Shown in pieces: positions 15,735 to 59,873 of a DNA stretch of 61,709 bases. The notes beneath the pieces are model-generated. The model ran no database searches. It had not been told where the DNA came from and saw only the letters and a list, made by a program, of their open reading frames with translations. Source of the DNA: Hydrolagus affinis (taxonomy: Eukaryota). Location of the stretch: the NCBI GenBank assembly GCA_012026655.1, contig JAAILG010001794.1:1-61709 (forward strand), in the 5' to 3' direction. Made by a program: the position numbers and the translations under genes. Position 1 is the stretch's first letter. The number at the start of each line of letters is the position of its first letter.

Positions 15735-16060
15735 AAGAGAGAATGGAGAGAGGGAATGGAAACACCAGAGGGAGAGAGAGAATATGAAAGCTAAAGGGAG
15801 AGGGAATAGGGAAGGTAGAGGGAGATAGAATGCGAAAGCTGGGGGGAGAGTGAATGGGAAAGCTGGAGGAAGTGAGGGTGAGAAAGTTGAAGCGAGACGA
15901 GAATGAGAAAGCTAGAGGGAGAGCGAATGGGAAAGCTGGAGGAAGTGAGGGTGAGAAAGTTAAAGGGAGACAGAGAATGAGAAAGCTGGAGAGACAATGA
16001 GACAGTTAGAGGAAGAGAGGATGGGAACGCTAGAGAAAGAGAGCGAGAGAAAGAGAGAGC
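15735..16060 (+). repeat. Purine-rich minisatellite, degenerate units of about 22 bp
   Basis: Repeated gagagagaatgggaaagctrgag-like units. Confidence 0.8.
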
Positions 16061-22801: not shown

Positions 22802-22928
22802 CTGTAGACTGCAGGAGGGTTTGCACGTGCTCTGCAATTAAGTGATACTTTTGCCTCCTCTGATTCCTCTGGGTAGATTGTAGGCATTGGCTGTTCTTCA
22901 AACACTGGTCCATACTGCTTGCTGTCTT
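22802..22928 (-). CDS. CNTN1: Contactin-1 exon, Ig1 first half ([43 protein letters not shown])
   Basis: 127 nt, ttgcag| acceptor and AG|GTAATA donor; contactin motif GPx[20 protein letters not shown]. Confidence 0.95.
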
Positions 22929-25303
22929 CTGCAATCACAATGCATGACTATTATAGGCAGTGCAGAAGTATAGGATGACCATGGCATGTCCTGTAAATCT
23001 AAGTAGTTCATTTATTACAAATCCATTTGATCAGGTGTGATCCTTCCATTGGGAGGAGGGTTCAGTATAACATGTGTCACTCACCTAGGTTCTTTTCATT
23101 TGCATCCATCAACACTCCCCAAGACTGAAGAACAAATGTTTTATTTATTCCTATTATTGTCTGTTAATCAGATGCCCATTTTTCTTTCTGCCTCACTTTC
23201 CTCAAACCACCTCTTCAGCCAGGAGCTCACAAACCAGATCAATTTTACAACTTTACTGTAATCTAGTACAACTCTTAATTCTTGACTGCCTGTCTTATTT
23301 TTCTTCAGTTAGCTTCTTTGTCTAAGATGCTTTAGATGGACTCTGTTGCCCATTTTGTGCACTTAATTTCAAATGCCGAGCCAAACACGAGGCAAGTGTG
23401 AAAAAGCAAAGCACCAATTTGCCATCATGACTTTTGTTAGTCCATAATTTGCATCTGTCCATATCTATGTCACACAACATTCTCTTTGCTTTCACAACTT
23501 ACCCTATCAATCAATCCATTATGGTATCCTCTAAATAATGAAAACACATAAATGAAGCCCTGGAAAAAAGTATCGTGACACTAGACTTACATGTTCTGCT
23601 GCATATGAGGATGTTCATACAGGAAAGGAGGTAAGGGGGAAAAAGTTCATAGCACAAGTTATAGACTCAAAAATTAAAAGTTTCAAAGTGTGCAAAGTTA
23701 TGTGAAGTTTCTCAAACAACCCAAGTATGAGCACAGTTTGTTACACTATATATCACCACAATAGGAGGGATAATCAGCTCCATCGTTTGTTACAAAATTA
23801 GAGTGATTGTTTTGTCAGTGCACTGCATCTGCTTTACACAGAATTCCCAGGGCTTTGGGGACCACAAATATCAACAAGTTTACATACAGAACACCAAAGG
23901 CTGATATCACTAAGTGATCGAATGGACCATGAAAACTTTAATTTGCAAACATCTATTTTTCTTTGTTTTTAATGGAACTAAATAATTCAAAGAATAAGAC
24001 TCAATTGTGCTGTGACTGAGGGTTAATAGATACCATTTCCACCAATAATGGACAATTTTTGTTATTATTGCAACCCAACATTTCATTTCAGCTGGAGATA
24101 AAAAAGATGTAAAAGGTGGCTATCTGATGTTCGGCACTTTAAACCTGTGTTCAAGTGTACAGATACCTAAGGAAGCCCAAGGTTGGGAGTTAATTGGACA
24201 ACTTTGCCAGAAGAAGAGTTAAAAGTAATACATTCATGTTGAAGGATATTGGAAAACCTGTTGATTAACTATACAAAGCAAACCAGAACAAGCAGTGATA
24301 TGCACAGAGGCAGCCATAGTGTTGGCTGTATAACGAAGCTCAACTCTGTCACCATGCATTACTCGAATGTTGAGCCTGAGATAATATGGCACAAAATCCA
24401 TACTAAACTTCTGAATGGTGCAGAGTGCTGGCTCATGATCAAGTAGTGCTTCACTTGGGACAATTACTGAAGTAATTTCAAGGCAACATACTGTGGACTC
24501 AATTAACAGTTTTGAAACTGTGGATAATTCTGAACTGCACTCACATATTCCCCCCATTTCAAAGCAAAGTATCAGCATCTCTGATAAACCAGGAAAAAAC
24601 CAAAACATATTACTGAACAACAAGTGCTTTGAGATGACCTCCCAATGTGAAAGGTGAAGGTTAAATGTAAGTATTATTATTATTTTATAATTTGAGCTCC
24701 TCAAATTTTAAATACCCAAATTACTATCAGTCCTTCATTTCATTTTTATTCATCTTGCCACAAATGAACTACATAAAAGGAACTTTCACAAATCACGGAG
24801 ACCACTGCACTGCAAAGGTTTCACATATTTGAACTCTTGAAACATATCTTAATAATAAGTTTTTTTTTATTTTAACTGTGGATTCCCATTCAATTACAAA
24901 TAAATTAATGCAACAAAACTTCCAAACTTTAATAACGCCCTCAAAAATAAATAAAACCAAGAATATTTCAGGATCTCAAGCGGTTTGTAAATTGATCATA
25001 TATGATACTGTCATTATAAGATCTAACTTGGTCCACCCTACCCTTTTGGATGGCACAAGTCAGGACACATTTACACTTTGCCAACACAAGACAAGCTGAT
25101 CCAACACTAACAGTTCCCTGAATGACTGCTGCAGGTACTACTTATCTACTCACACAAGCCTGGACAGGTTTCAAATGCTGAATAAATGTGAATATTATTA
25201 TTATCATACAAGACAACGTTAATTTTCATTCTGAACAAGTGAAATACTTGAGCCTTTTTTCCTTCCGATTTTGAGATAAATTGGGTCAAATTTTCTTTTA
25301 TAG

Positions 25304-25341
25304 GAGTTCTGACGAGGGTCGTGGACCCGAAACGTTGACTC
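25304..25341 (+). ncRNA. Minimal type I hammerhead ribozyme motif
   Basis: gagtt-CTGACGA-gggtc(gtg)gaccc-GAAA-CGT-T-gactc: both catalytic core boxes, 5-bp stem II, stem I gagtt/gactc, stem III reduced to the palindrome ACGT. Confidence 0.75.
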
Positions 25342-25440
25342 ACTTTTCCTTTCTCCATAGATGCTGCCTGACCTGCTGAGTGTTTCCAGCGATTTCTGTT
25401 TTTGTTTCAGATTTCTAGCATCTGCAGTATTTTGTGTTTC
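25304..25440 (+). mobile_element. Penelope-like element terminal-repeat (pLTR) fragment
   Basis: Hammerhead motif followed by a tail (agatgctgcctgacctgctgag...agcatctgcagtatttt) that recurs near 30893, 32480 and 43950. Confidence 0.65.
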
Positions 25441-26694
25441 TTTATAGCATAAAATAGCATTTCTTCTAACAAGAATGACTTTGGACCAATGGTCTGCACC
25501 TCAGTCTATTCCAGTTATAATGCTCCTCAACATTAATCCTCAAAATCTCAAAACTATCAATGAATCAGTTCTTTGGTTTTCTTCCTAATTGATGACAAAC
25601 ATTAATGATGGCAAAAAGCAGCATTTGGCTTTATCTCTCAGGGACAAAGTTAAGTTGATATCGGTCATGGGTGTGAAAAGCTCATACGGATCCAAGGGAA
25701 CACATCATGCATTAATTCACCCGATGTTTCCTGCAGTGCTCCAGTCATACCAAAGCAACAACATGCTCAGAAGACGAAATGGCATTTTCACCCTCTGTGC
25801 TCACAGTCTGTGCCAACCGCATGAGTCAGATTGATGCAACAGTCTGACACGACAATTTCACACTTGGACTCAAGCTGAATTCTGAACCTTTTCTTAAGAC
25901 AGCGTCAACCCAAGTATAATGAGAACTGCGCACAATGTGACCTCTGTTCTCCATGCATTGAGATGAGTGAACCAACAATTTATAACTGCTTTATCAAGAA
26001 CAAGTCTGAACGGAAGTTAAAGGGGCGCAACTAAAGTGCCTAGCAAAACTTTTGTTTCATATTGGGCAACAGCCAAGAATGTGTTTGTATTTTCACCATG
26101 ATAATATGGCACACATCTAATTACGATGATGCGTTAGTGTGTTTCCAAAACAACATTTCAGTTTCATCAACATGAGCCACCTTTTTGACAAGTACACGAT
26201 GAAGAAAGAAATGAGTGGAAAGAAAATTCAAAGCACTTGCAAACTAAAACTGATTTGAAATAAAATAATGTCTCTTGTTTACAATTCAGCCAGGTATACC
26301 TATACTATCAGCCAGGGTAAATTAATGAATCAGCAGCAAAAGCATTCTACAATACAGGAGCAACTCCCACATCTTGTTCAAGATCCACCTTAAGACCCAC
26401 TTAATTAATTGTATATTCAGTCATCTTTCCACTCCGCATCCTTTCCGGCTTCCACCCCACCCAGCTTGGGTGCTCAGTCAACAATGTCAAGCACTTTGAG
26501 ATGTCCTCCTTATGTGAATGGTACTGTATCAATATAAATTGCATTGCACTGTATTGCGCATGCTTGAGTTCTATGTTCTTTGAATATTTCAGGTCATTTA
26601 CCTTACTACAGATATGTCATCCATCATTTTGCTGCTCTGAGTAACATTCTGCACGAAGACTTGCTATTTATGTTTGAATAACTTTTGAAAGTGA

Positions 26695-30810: not shown

Positions 30811-31280
30811 TAATAAAAATCCTCGCATTTGATATATCACTTTGCACGTCCCCTAGACGTCTCAAAGCACATCATACAATATACTGTAAAGTACACAAAA
30901 ACACAAAATACTGCAGATGCCAGAAATCTGAAACAAAAGCAGAAATCGCTGGGGACACTCACGTGAGTTCTGACGAAGGGTCGTGGACCTGAAACATTGA
31001 TTCACTTTTCCTTTTTCCATAAATGCTGCCTAACCTGCCGAATGTTCCTTACTGTAAAGTGAATTGACTGTATATTTTGTGGGCAAAATGAGGTAGCCAA
31101 TTGTGTACAGCAGTGTCACACAAAAAGTGTGATTGCAGTGACCATTTTGTTATTGTTTTTTCTTGAGGGATTATTATCAGGTGTGTGAAGCAAGGAAACT
31201 TGCCCCAGATTTTGACCTGCTGGGAATCACACCCAGGTCTCTCACTTACGAGGCCAGTCCTCTAATCACTGAGCTACAGG
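30811..31280 (-). mobile_element. tRNA-derived SINE interrupted by a Penelope-like insertion
   Basis: SINE sequence is contiguous once 30893-31060 is removed. Confidence 0.8.
30893..31049 (+). mobile_element. Penelope-like pLTR fragment with inverted 5' segment and decayed hammerhead (30963-31005), inserted in a SINE
   Basis: 30895-30961 is the reverse complement of the repeat tail; then gtgagtt-CTGACGA-agggtc gtg gacct-GAAA-catt-gattcac. Flanked by the direct repeat tactgtaaagt at 30882-30892 and 31050-31060. Confidence 0.7.
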
Positions 31281-32479: not shown

Positions 32480-32590
32480 GGTCAGGCAACATCTATGGAG
32501 AAAGGAGCTGCTGCCTGACCTGCTGAGTGTTCCCAGCAATTCCTGTTTTTGTTTCAGATTTCCAGCATCTGCAGTATTTTGCATTTTTGT
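32480..32590 (+). mobile_element. Penelope-like pLTR fragment, inverted arrangement, no ribozyme core
   Basis: gtcaggcaacatctatggagaaagg (inverted) followed by the forward tail ctgcctgacctgctgag...gcagtatttt. Confidence 0.6.
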
Positions 32591-34324: not shown

Positions 34325-34636
34325 TGATAATAATAATCCTTGCATTTGATATAGCACTTTTCACATCTTTTCAAAGTCTCAAAATTCTTCGCAGAATATA
34401 CTGTAAAGTGAATTGACTGTATAAATGTGGGCAAAACTCAGCAGCCAATTGTGCACAGCAGTGTTCCACAAGCAGCCGTGAAGTGAAACAACCAATTTTA
34501 TTATTGTGGGTTTTTTGGAGGGATTATTATTAGGCGTGTAGAGTAATGAAACTTGCCCAAGGTTTTGCCCTGAGCTGTCTGGATTCGAACAAAAGGTCTC
34601 ACGCTGGAAAGGCGAGCGCTCTAACCATTGAGCCAC
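34325..34636 (-). mobile_element. tRNA-derived SINE, near full length (a second partial copy at about 34030-34260)
   Basis: Reverse complement of the same family. Confidence 0.85.
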
Positions 34637-35741
34637 AGTGGGTGGGGAGGCGTCCCATTATTTGAACACCAAACACCAAATTGCAAAGGATTTGAATGTA
34701 AAACACCCACCTCATTAGACTGGTTTGCAGTTACAGCAATTATGCTGGACAGACACAATGTATTTCATTAAACAAAAAAAAGGAAGTGTTTGTCCAGTTA
34801 CAGCTGGTAATTAAGACCATAAAGGATTAATTCTACACCCTAGATGTTTTGACTATCAATCCACTCAGTTCACCAATTTCTGTAGACTTTCTTCTTCATT
34901 CCCAAGAGATCAACTCTAGCAACATTGAGCTGGAATCCCAGGAATTTCAATTTCCTGAGGATTTGTGGTCCATGAATCCATAGCTTGTCCTCAAGTACTT
35001 TTCAATGTGCCTTACACAAACCAATAGAACAGTGATAGAAAATCATTCCCCAGCATCATGTGCTGGTATTTGTTTCTGCAATCTTACCAAGACTGGTAAT
35101 GGAATTCAATTTGGAAAGATCACAGTCAAGTGGTCAAGACTACACCATCAGCGAGTTACTTACAGGAAAATACTCATCATTCCATTATCTTTCAGAAAAT
35201 CCATTTTGAGTCTTCTACGGATTGATTAAATGCTGCCCATGTGAAGGGCACGTCCAACTGTAGTCAATGACATTTCCATTCACTAAAGCTGGGAAGAGAA
35301 TAATTGCAATGGTGGTCTACATCGACTCGCTTTAGACTCAATATACAGCAATCTGGAAACAAATAAAACGTCTATTTGATATGAAAACACACCCTTCTCT
35401 CATTGCTAGATCTTTCACATGGATAAACAACAACATTCCCACAAAGTGTTCAGTGTCCACTGGTGCTAACTGAGCACAAGAATGGGAATGTTACAGTTCC
35501 AGGCACTATGGCTGTTGACCTTGGAAGGATGATAATGTCGATAATCACTCAAATTTTTTCAATGATTTCACATCATATTCATCATTAGACAACCCTGCCA
35601 CAGGTAATTGGGCTACAAACTAATCCACGGATTCCAAAGAGGTTGGATAGGCAAGAGTCTCACCGGGACATTGATGAAATCATGACAATCTTCAGCAGAA
35701 TTTAAAAAGATATTACATGTAAGAAAGCTCAAGGCACTTAA

Positions 35742-36876: not shown

Positions 36877-36931
36877 CTGCCAGGCAGCAAATGAATGACA
36901 ACGCAAAAAAATGACTGAACAGGAACCACAT
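36877..36931 (-). CDS. CNTN1: Contactin-1, first coding exon (signal peptide MWFLFSHFFALSFICCLA)
   Basis: ATG at 36931-36929, 18 mostly hydrophobic codons plus 1 nt, donor CAG|GTAAGT. Resembles the human CNTN1 N-terminus (MWLLVSHLVIISITTCLA). Phase 1 fits the next exon. Confidence 0.9.
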
Positions 36932-37014: not shown

Positions 37015-37554
37015 CTACAAAATAAAGCAGAGAACCATGTTAAAACAGGTTTCTTTGGAATAGATAATTACTACATATTCTTGTTAATCAATTGGGTGCA
37101 AATGTTTGTTCAGCACAAAATATGGTTCTTACCCCATGCGGGGACTTTGAACTCACACAGTCTAGGCCGACACCGCAGAACAATGCTGGGAAAGCACTGC
37201 ATCGTCAGAGATGCCGTCCTTTGGATAAGGACAGGCTAATAAATCAAACCCTATCTGACTGTTCAAGCAGACATCAGAGATACCACAATGCTATTTAAAG
37301 AGAGAATTTCTTCTTGTGTCCTGGTCGACAATCCCCCCAAATAAAATTGGTCACTCACTTCATGGCTGTTTGAAGACAGACCAGACAAATTGCCTTATCA
37401 GAAGGGCTTGGAGAGCCAAGGAATGATCCTTCTCACTATCTCCTGTTATCCCTGCTAACCAAAGCTCTAACAAGTAGAGTAGGCCAAGGTGAACAACCAG
37501 TAGAAAACCTGTTGGGAGTGTGGTTGGCAAACTCATGGGGCATTAACTGATTAA

Positions 37555-37875
37555 CCTGTAGCTCAGTGGTTTGAGCACTTGCTTTACAAGCATGAGACTT
37601 GCGTTCGAATCCGGGCAGGTCAGGGTGGAAACCTTGGGCAAGTTTCCTTACTCCACACACTTAATAATAATCCCTCAAGAATTTTTTTTTTTTAATTGGG
37701 TCATTTCAATCCACGAGTGTTTGTGGGACACTGCTGTGTGCAATTGGCTGCCACATTTTGCCCACAAATATACAATCAATTCATTTTACAGTATATTCTG
37801 TGAAGCGCTTTGAGATGTCTAGAAGATGTGAAAAATGCTATATCAAATGCAAGGATTATTATTATTACTATTATT
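37555..37875 (+). mobile_element. tRNA-derived SINE, near full length, with L2-like 3' tail
   Basis: A box tagctcagtgg, B box gttcgaatcc, body shared with more than 10 copies in the window, (ATT)n tail. Confidence 0.85.
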
Positions 37876-39617
37876 AACCTCCCAAAAGCACATTCTGGTT
37901 TCCCAAAGCCCGTCAATCTTTGCCTGATACTTTCTGGAATTAGGTAAGCAGAGTGCATCTCTTGGTGGAAAGAGCGTGCATTCCTTTCTAGACAAGTGGG
38001 AAATGTCATGGTTAGATGGCTTACATTTGTGTCAGATTTCCGGTCTGGTTTGCATGGCTATGTGTTTTCCCATGTATCAGACACAACAGCAACAAAATCA
38101 AAATCACACTTGTATAGCGCCTTTCACATCAGGAGGATGTCCCAAGGCGCTGGACAGTCACTGTTTCAGACCCAAGCTGGGGGAGGGAAGGGTCGTATTA
38201 GTAAAAATCCTCAGGAAAGTACACTACAAACCGTGCAAGTAAACTTCTGGGACCCAGGCAAACCCATGCTCCTTAAGTTTTGGGACTGACCTGTGCACAG
38301 TTCTTTGTACTAAAGGTTGCAATACAAGAAAGGATAAACCAGCATTCACTAGAGCAGCAACTGAGTGGATAACAGTCGAACTGGATAAAGGTCCAGCTGT
38401 TTTGCAACAAATCAAAATATTCTTCAAGTCCTGTGTCATTAGAAAGCCCAACAAGAACTGAGCTAAGATAACGAAAACAGACTCAATCTAAAACAGAAAG
38501 CTCTATGAGCGACTGCAGCAAATAGCAATTGGAACTCCTGATTTTCCACATGATTTGTTCTTTCTTTCTGAATCATTCCATTCAATGCAGTAATCAATTC
38601 AAGTTACTTAATGGCCCTGCTATATAAATACACCTCAGCTCCTGACTCATGTCTGGTTCCTTGATGGATTAGTAATATCTTCCTGAAGGCTGGAGTCACT
38701 TCAAATCATTAAAGAGAAATTGGAAAGATAAGCACTTATTTCTCTGCGACTGTCTGTATTACCGAGCCTATGCAATTCAAAATTCAACCTCTAAACACTG
38801 TGAATGTTATTCCCTGCAAATATCACAGAGACTCATTGTTTACTGACCCAATTTACTGGTTCAGCACTTGCCACCAAATCCTGCTGAACTCCTGCTCAAT
38901 GCAAACCACGGAGAGTTGTTGAACAAATCACCAAAAGTGTGAATTTCAGCACAGTTTACACCATTGAAAGAAAGAAATAGAAAAGAGAGCCAGGATTTCA
39001 TGGTGAGGATGGTTTGGAGTGGTTACAGACCTTTCTTGGAATTAAATGAGATCGATAGAATGTCACATTTACATCATCATTTTGTCTGACCGGTAACGCT
39101 CGATTTATGGTAATCACTTCCAGAAGTTCTAGTCAAAAATAAATACAGATCTTCTTTCCCAAAAGAGCAATCGATACAAGTATATTCTAAAGACCATTTG
39201 TGAATAAAATGACAGTAATAATAATGATTAAGAATATAATGGCAGAAGTTGTGTTTTAATACACTTTTGTTAAACCCTAAGTAAAAATAATATTTAATAC
39301 AACAATTTATGACACTGAAATGTCGCAAAGCTCTATACACAATATATTAGTTTGAAATATTGTACTGTACTGGCTGCTAAATGACAAACAGACAAATCAG
39401 TAACAGCAGTGTCTCATAAACAGTAATGACATGAAGAATTAACTAATATATTTCATTTTATGATTTGGGGAGAAATATTGGCCATGACATGAGAAATCAC
39501 TGTTCGATTCCAAATTTTTAATGGGATCCTTAACATCCTATATTGGCTTCATGTTTATTCTAAAGAACAGCATTTTTCATTCAATGGCTGCACCCTTTCA
39601 GTTCTGCAATGAAGCAT

Positions 39618-40055
39618 TACAACAACAACAACAACAACAAAATTGCACTTATATAGCGCCTTTCACGTCGAGAGGACGTCCCAAAGCGCTGAACAGACTG
39701 GTCGGGACCTGAGTGGGGGGGCGGGGGGGTGGGGGTGGGGATGGGACGGGGTAGGGGGAAGGGGAAGGAGAGTGGGAGAGGGGGAAGAGTTAGTGGGGCA
39801 GCCGAAGGCGCAGTCGAAGAGGAAGGTCTTGAGACCGGCCTTGAAGGAGGAAAGGGAGGAAACAAGGTGGAGGGGCTGCAGAATGGAGTTCCACAGTATG
39901 GGAGCAGAGAGGCTGAAAGCCCGGCCGCAGATGGTTGGGTGGTTAGGATGGTGGACGTGGAGCAGGCCTGAGTCTGCTGAACGGAGGGTGCGGGCAGGCT
40001 AATAACTGATAGTGGGGGCAATAGCCTTGAAAGTGAGGACAAGGATCTTGAATTT
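39618..40055 (-). mobile_element. L2 LINE 3' end, relatively young
   Basis: (CAA)n tail, intact stem-loop, retained CpGs; very similar to 46872-47085 in the opposite orientation. Confidence 0.8.
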
Positions 40056-43043: not shown

Positions 43044-43348
43044 AGTCCTGTAGCTCAGTGGTTAGAACACTTGCCTTGCACACATGAGTCCTGGGTTTGA
43101 TTCCCAGCAGGGTGAAACCTCGGATACATTTCCTTACTCCACACACCTGATAATAATCCCTCAACAAAAAAAACTATAATAATTTGGCCACTCAATCCAA
43201 GACTGTTTGTGGGACACTGCTGTGTGCAATTGGCTGCCATGTTTCACCCACAAATATAGTCAATTCACTTTACAGTATATGCAGCAAAACGCTTTGAGTC
43301 GTGTAGAAACCATGAAAAGCACCATCAAATGCAAGGATTATTATTATT
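43044..43348 (+). mobile_element. tRNA-derived SINE, near full length
   Basis: Same family as 37555-37875. Confidence 0.85.
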
Positions 43349-43949: not shown

Positions 43950-44045
43950 GAACAAAAACAGAAGTTGCTGGGAACACTCAGCAGGTCAGCGACTTCTGTT
44001 TTTGTTTCAGATTTCCAGAATCGGCAGTATTTTGCGTTTTGTTTC
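43950..44045 (+). mobile_element. Penelope-like pLTR fragment, inverted arrangement
   Basis: aacaaaaacagaagttgctgggaacactcagcaggtc (inverted tail) joined to cagcgacttctgtttttgtttcagatttccag. Confidence 0.6.
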
Positions 44046-59598: not shown

Positions 59599-59873
59599 GT
59601 TACCACTCGATAGTCCGAAGGTTCGTTAGTCCAAAGGTTCATTAGTCCGAAGGTTCATTAGTCTGAAGCTTCCCCTAACCCTAACCCTAATTCTAACCCT
59701 AACCTTTGGACTAATGAACCTTCGGACTATCACACTAAATGTTCGGATTAACAAACCTTATTTAATTTTCGGTTCGGACTATCGAGCGGTAACGCCCCCG
59801 GGTAAAGGAAATTTGTGTGTTCGGACTATCGAACCTTCGGATTAACGAACCTTCGGACTATCAAGCAGACCCC
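59599..59873. mobile_element. Non-autonomous foldback-type DNA transposon with internal telomeric repeats
   Basis: Tandem 16-bp units (gttcrttagtccgaag) at the left, inverted units at the right, (CCCTAA)-like repeats at about 59672-59705, and flanking direct repeat taattttca at 59590-59598 and 59874-59882. Confidence 0.75.

Follow-up and report, generated by a model that had tools for sequence, protein, structure and literature searches.

A minimal hammerhead motif stands in a 61,709-nt stretch of Hydrolagus affinis DNA (the window, by which we mean this whole stretch), inside the gene CNTN1, and the locus raises the question of what kind of element left it there and whether the copy could still cleave. 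The earlier note had read two hammerhead cores, stems I and II, a palindromic stem III and a GUU cleavage site, and direct reading of the sequence bears out each of them (Table 1). All catalytic nucleotides are kept, the core has the CUGANGA and GAAA form with a UH cut site, and the palindromic stem III is accompanied by a G10.1-C11.1 pair. We conclude that the motif is very probably a minimal hammerhead fronting the 137-nt pLTR stub of a decayed Penelope-like element (PLE) of about 3 kb, likely of the Neptune clade, and we predict this solitary antisense copy to be inert.

The core pattern is matched exactly 4,601 times in the genome (1.11 Gb), whereas its reversal, used as a control, gives 197 matches, so the pattern occurs beyond chance. 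The spacer, which in the family form has one more nucleotide between A9 and G10.1, is 14 nt long in 139 of the 145 copies in which it was measurable (18 of 163 were not measurable) and 13 nt in the focal copy alone. Among 57 copies selected by ORF sequence, 55 have an additional A at that point, which is deleted in the focal copy. Stem I of the family is 4 bp long, and the focal fifth pair involves G25304, a position occupied by C in 54 of the 57 family copies. The ‘perfect’ textbook look of the focal motif is thus partly an accident of one copy, because the nucleotide between A9 and G10.1 was lost and the fifth stem I pair draws on an untemplated G. Nor does the description of the motif as intact serve as a sign of conservation: CpG decay falls inside the core as it does in the flanks, with G12 and the palindrome G each kept in 35 of the 57 copies, the focal copy bears its deletion, and the second core-bearing copy in the window (30965-31046) is damaged, its palindrome reading ACAT and the end of its stem II altered. 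Core positions outside CpG are kept in 89-100% of the 57 copies, a conservation like that of the tail, and full stems plus core persist in 28 of 88 copies selected by pattern. A covariance-model check, suggested along with the original description, did not recover the motif, as an Rfam scan of the whole window at the gathering threshold returned no hammerhead and only four tRNA-like heads. The latter (31216-31280, 34575-34638, 37552-37623 and 43044-43115) are the heads of a common SINE.

The motif had been described as intronic and antisense to CNTN1, and it is. CNTN1 runs on the minus strand, with Contactin-1 the best PDB match of two exons and more Ig exons down to 9318. A signal-peptide exon (36931-36877) joins the Ig1 exon (22802-22928) in phase, and from this exon and the minus-strand Ig exons it follows that 25304 lies between them, intronic and antisense. 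The four family copies reported for the window are likewise there, and both core-bearing ones are on the plus strand, antisense to CNTN1. Close copies of the focal insertion are 91-97% identical to it. PLE pLTRs can hold introns, and the tail of the focal insertion contains an acceptor-like stretch, for which no donor or spliced read was identified. Among other repeats of the window, 39616-39935 and about ten similar copies are common LINE/SINE 3′ ends terminating in (TTG)n, which we take to be typical of the CR1/L2 group; 16-nt tandem repeats at 59611-59704 and 59820-59862 adjoin a short (CCCTAA)n run inside the contig, and a purine-rich 24-nt minisatellite occupies 15774-16043 in a CNTN1 intron.

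Table 1. Features of the hammerhead locus, the family insertions and the host gene within the window.
Feature	Position	Strand	Remarks
Minimal type I hammerhead motif	25304-25341	+	Core, stems and palindrome by direct reading of sequence; lacks the additional family nucleotide between A9 and G10.1
Stem I	GAGTT 25304-25308 with GACTC 25337-25341	+	Direct reading
Hammerhead cores	CTGACGA 25309-25315; GAAA 25329-25332	+	Direct reading
Stem II	25316-25328	+	GGGTC 25316-25320, loop GTG, GACCC 25324-25328; direct reading
Palindrome ACGT (stem III)	25332-25335	+	N17 is T 25336; predicted cut after 25336
Whole insertion: pLTR end of Neptune-type (likely) PLE, long 3′-end class (with optional ~35-nt tail)	25304-25440 (end approximate)	+	137 nt
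Left target-site duplication	25292-25303	+	7 nt exact, 25297-25303; ~11-12 nt with one T indel
Right target-site duplication	25437-25447	+	7 nt exact, 25441-25447
Extra G between duplication and first templated base	25304	+	Family has C
Polypyrimidine tract and AG within tail, splice-acceptor-like	25393-25410	+	Branch-point-like motif upstream; from sequence only
Second insertion, short 3′-end class	30899-31046		Inverted tail fragment 30961-30899 head-to-head with core-bearing copy 30965-31046 (+)
Third insertion	32480-32581		Inverted pair of tail fragments, without core
Fourth insertion	43951-44039		Inverted pair of tail fragments, without core; upstream of CNTN1 ATG exon
CNTN1 Ig1 exon	22802-22928	-	Downstream limit of host intron
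Candidate first coding part of CNTN1	36877-36931	-	Signal peptide, phase-1 GTAAGT donor; upstream limit of host intron; sequence scan, not database match

The nature of the element emerges from its longer copies, which reach up to ~790 nt upstream, into GIY-YIG coding sequence. Walking upstream from them leads through a 3′ UTR into GIY-YIG coding sequence and then RT, and RT, EN and the hammerhead tail stand in order, on one strand and within ~3 kb, in L131, L137, L141, L243, L244, L245, L246 and L248 (eight ids for seven distinct loci, out of 14 examined). The linked RT and GIY-YIG reading frames that a Penelope origin had led the earlier note to anticipate are therefore found in longer copies such as L131, which matches RVT_1 at E 1.5e-6, just below the curated cut-off; the GIY-YIG score is weak in a decayed copy (E 0.021) and reaches 2.3e-5 in the relative P0013. 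L131 has 2,409 relatives, the best named of which come from sharks and rays (58-64%), with named ones in corals, sea urchins and molluscs at 45-50%. Ahead of GIY-YIG, a C-x4-C-x2-C linker is present in L131, L150 and L132. The accessible sections of two studies give a CX2-5CxxC linker between RT and EN as a mark of Neptune (PMC3846280, PMC8557442), and by this motif the element likely belongs to that clade. An extra nucleotide at 9/10.1, the G10.1-C11.1 pair and a palindromic stem III are the marks of PLE minimal hammerheads in the available text of PMC4209133; with such marks in the motif and the family linked to a PLE ORF, the assignment to Penelope-associated minimal type I hammerheads stands.

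The 3′ ends of copies cluster at +93-98 and +131 from C3, giving two classes ~35 nt apart, the 3′ tail continues into the element body in L131 and L101, and truncated copies with an inverted partner are common. Two subfamilies exist in the genome, and their stem II differs by a single one-sided C-G to U-G change. The longest open frame among 151 matches, of which the top candidates were scored in a fragmented assembly, is 494 aa; no uninterrupted ORF was found there, so the active element is one that we infer. An ATG at +52 in the decayed copies is a candidate ORF start. One locus, L241:649-3556, is a partial tandem in which a truncated, hammerhead-bearing copy upstream is followed by an inserted SINE and then by the start of the next ORF. 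Separately, two ray proteins annotated as host genes, P0043 and P0065 (chitinase-domain protein 1 and divergent protein kinase domain 1C isoforms), show a 59% match to the PLE ORF and are probably PLE sequence absorbed into gene models.

Because the longer copies run into GIY-YIG and RT sequence with a Neptune-type Cys linker, we take the short repeat to be the pLTR of a ~3-kb PLE rather than a retrozyme. This revises the original proposal of a non-autonomous or retrozyme-like family, as the short copies are the terminal repeat of an element of autonomous type. A separate ribozyme-driven family, retrozyme- or SINE-like and amplified via cleavage and circularisation, would fit the predominance of short copies (63 of the 88 selected by pattern, short ones far outnumbering long ones), their shared 5′ boundary and the several hundred-fold drop in DNA depth from tail to ORF start (the fall in depth 5′ of the hammerhead itself was set aside, as subfamily divergence confounds it); retrozymes are, moreover, derived from PLE pLTRs in the accessible text of a recent preprint (bioRxiv 10.64898/2026.07.22.740005). 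Yet retrozymes are tandem repeats with a hammerhead per unit, whereas no tandem repeats of the family unit occur in the 61,709-nt window, where copies are monomers or inverted pairs. Short and long copies also share the two subfamilies and the two 3′ ends, and 5′ ends ~30 nt upstream of the cut site point to uncut templates. We consider a separate family of this kind quite improbable.

That the motif has a ribozyme history is argued by families of other animals. A metagenome search with the core pattern and stem I left free returned 116 loci (L361-L476) with 63 distinct matches, sharing the same core, additional nucleotide and palindrome, and PLE protein sequence was found in the 400-nt flanks of 35 of the 116. 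Stem I pairs over at least 3 bp in 39 of the 63 distinct matches, against a mean of 18.3 and a maximum of 26 in 1000 shuffles. Two-sided changes affect all four stem I pairs in an alignment of 19 rows, which were hand-picked for diversity, mostly with good stems, and are illustrative, the 63-match set being the unbiased count. The covariation of stem I across related families of other animals marks the motif as a bona fide PLE minimal hammerhead, a type already known. The covariation comes from those animals’ families and not from the Hydrolagus family, as the stem II subfamily change is one-sided; the covariation of stems proposed as a check was thus seen for stem I across families, while within the genome’s own family stem II shows only that single one-sided change. 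The related PLE proteins are themselves ~50% identical between the fish element and those of corals, sea urchins and molluscs, a level for which either slow evolution or transfer could account. The idea of a repeat hairpin that arose by chance, with no ribozyme history, would be in keeping with a fold no more stable than shuffles, the lack of an Rfam match and an active dimer that is not the predicted ground state. Against this, the same core, spacing, palindrome and compensatory stem I recur in unrelated families at the same place after the PLE ORF, and we regard a chance origin as scarcely credible. No second hammerhead family combining this palindrome with a GUC or GUA site was found in the genome, the search giving 272 matches versus 312 for the control.

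Whether the focal copy could act was approached through folding energies, which leave out tertiary contacts. In the minimum-energy fold of the monomer the core is paired with the palindrome (-12.1 kcal/mol vs -10.6 for the open core; z -0.98), and in the dimer the double hammerhead lies at -20.3 kcal/mol vs -30.9 for the predicted ground state. For published minimal hammerheads, monomers do not cut and dimers cut weakly in the sections of PMC4209133 available to us, and the anole PLE hammerhead requires the PLE protein according to the accessible text of PMC11167929. No intact partner for the focal motif is present nearby, the nearest same-strand core being 5.6 kb off with a broken palindrome, and the CNTN1 transcript carries the complementary strand. 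The lone antisense copy is accordingly predicted to be inert. With all catalytic nucleotides kept, some activity as a dimer or with protein is conceivable. The motif of the ancestral element, for its part, probably cut only as a dimer via the palindrome, and perhaps only with help from the protein.

The antisense placement of both core-bearing copies in the window had been read as compatible with selection against cleaving the host pre-mRNA, so that intronic copies would be active in vivo, sense cores would have been purged and the focal copy would have been left antisense to CNTN1. We counted family fragments in 90 stretches of intragenic DNA flanked by exons of one strand (830,241 nt in all), with gene strand taken from Pfam exons on one contig and strand. 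The 23 fragments divided 10 sense to 13 antisense, those covering the core 3:4 and those with an intact core 2:1, so intact cores do sit in sense inside genes. The tRNA-derived SINE whose heads lie in the window served as a control and was skewed 143:100 in the same DNA, and the intragenic set, though small, is therefore able to detect a skew for a frequent repeat; the (TTG)n-ending LINE/SINE showed no orientation skew there (54:49). A k-mer classifier of transcription direction, right on 90% of 10-kb stretches, gave sense:antisense counts of 11:9 (20 stretches of 10 kb), 14:15 and 25:31 (p 0.50) in three sets and 48:39 on 87 intact-core loci, the last with a mean of +0.08 ± 0.18 of the sense signal; the 87 loci overlap with the other sets. 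Coverage of the hammerhead bin by another organism’s RNA reads was at least as high in the element’s apparent sense as in the opposite one (663 vs 403 and 503 vs 400).

These data show no antisense bias of family copies, in either the intragenic count or the flank classifier, at the available power. The purging of sense cores could appeal to the two antisense copies of the window (n=2), to the 25:31 split of one classifier set and to a depletion of Xenopus retrozymes in introns, as stated in the accessible part of bioRxiv 10.64898/2026.07.22.740005, but the 10:13 and 2:1 intragenic counts, the 11:9 and 48:39 classifier counts and the RNA coverage weigh against it, and we judge it very unlikely. 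A strict antisense rule is incompatible with the strand counts; a mild bias (60:40) may exist.

The 5′ ends of the copies form one real pattern. Of 88 copies selected by core pattern alone, 61 stop within 6 nt of C3, 2 at 9-11 nt, and 25 extend at least 12 nt upstream, so that 5′ end density is 14.7% per nt within the boundary vs 1.5% just beyond it (p 3e-6). In DNA picked irrespective of the family, 7 of 27 fragments begin at the boundary and 2 go further; DNA contigs and RNA reads likewise have loose ends at this position. This boundary lies ~30 nt upstream of the cut site, where no pile-up of 5′ ends was seen among the copies, which argues that the templates were uncut. The boundary fits YYANWYY, the initiator consensus. 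Starts at the A have an extra G before them in 5 of 8 cases (p 0.035) and starts at the next G in 8 of 15 (p 0.045; p values uncorrected), but those at the C in only 3 of 11. G25304, standing between the duplication and the templated start, is possibly such a base, a reverse-transcribed cap.

We weigh as evenly balanced the proposal that most of the short copies, among them the focal one, arose as strong-stop-like run-off cDNAs from uncut, capped RNA, often with the cap copied as an extra G. The capped RNA would begin where an initiator-like sequence borders the hammerhead on its 5′ side, RT would initiate 95-135 nt downstream in the same 5′ repeat and reach the RNA end, the cap would often be copied as an extra G and the stub inserted, and long copies would come from the 3′ repeat or follow a jump. 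RT initiation at an internal site near the ORF start is described in PMC11167929, and transcription that begins inside the upstream pLTR in PMC2377424; with both, run-off from the capped 5′ end of the RNA is the simplest reading. The spread of copy 5′ ends over 6 nt weighs against a run-off origin, and RT arrest at a C-rich tract or stem I may instead cause the boundary. RNA reads of another organism showed no site where many molecules begin or end, a weak test given fragmented libraries. Splicing was considered as a cause of the boundary and rejected, as there is no shared upstream exon and many copies include the AG. For the pLTR stub as such, in whichever way its 5′ end arose, the element’s protein would have copied uncut RNA from an internal start, as was shown in vitro for the anole PLE, and the product would have been inserted at an AT-rich site with a short duplication.

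The motif is a PLE minimal hammerhead of a kind that has been in print since 2014. The accessible text of Cervera and De la Pena 2014 (PMC4209133) describes minimal hammerheads in the pLTRs of metazoan PLEs with the same short stem I, extra nucleotide, G10.1-C11.1 pair and loopless palindromic stem III, in thousands of mostly single motifs per genome, within the Xena, Poseidon and Neptune PLEs of fishes, coelacanth and Xenopus. They differ in a stem II of 7-8 bp in Schistosoma as opposed to 5 bp here, and in the extra nucleotide that the focal copy lacks; that text names no cartilaginous fish, and its supplements may list the family. The Neptune EN+ PLEs, in the available sections of PMC8557442 and PMC3846280, share the order RT-Cys linker-GIY-YIG, heavy 5′ truncation, an adjacent inverted copy, an optional 30-40-bp tail and partial tandems, whereas in the Hydrolagus assembly no intact ORF was found and the clade is assigned by the linker. 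The PAc Poseidon element of Anolis (Frangieh et al. 2024, PMC11167929) is alike in two 3′ ends a tail apart, a pLTR hammerhead, an uncut RNA substrate and an AT-rich target; it differs in its clade and in an ORF that starts in stem II, and its accessible text does not mention 5′ ends accumulating at the edge of the ribozyme. Non-LTR retrozymes, as far as the preprint text goes (bioRxiv 10.64898/2026.07.22.740005), have a type I hammerhead and a PLE pLTR origin and are present in the sole chondrichthyan sampled, but form tandem arrays with a hammerhead per unit, of which the window has none. We found no prior description in cartilaginous fishes, and nothing that states strong-stop copies, in a literature search for which subscription papers, Repbase and Dfam were beyond scope, and the supplements of the preprint, too, may list the family.

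The single focal locus matters little, being one of thousands of dead PLE ends. The strand tests are an argument that a minimal hammerhead standing alone in an intron does the host no harm. The fixed 5′ boundary ~30 nt upstream of the cut site, with its possible cap-derived G, bears on the role of PLE hammerheads and on pLTR and tail formation. If the run-off reading is true, the stubs would mark where PLE transcription begins and would show the in vivo template to be uncut RNA.
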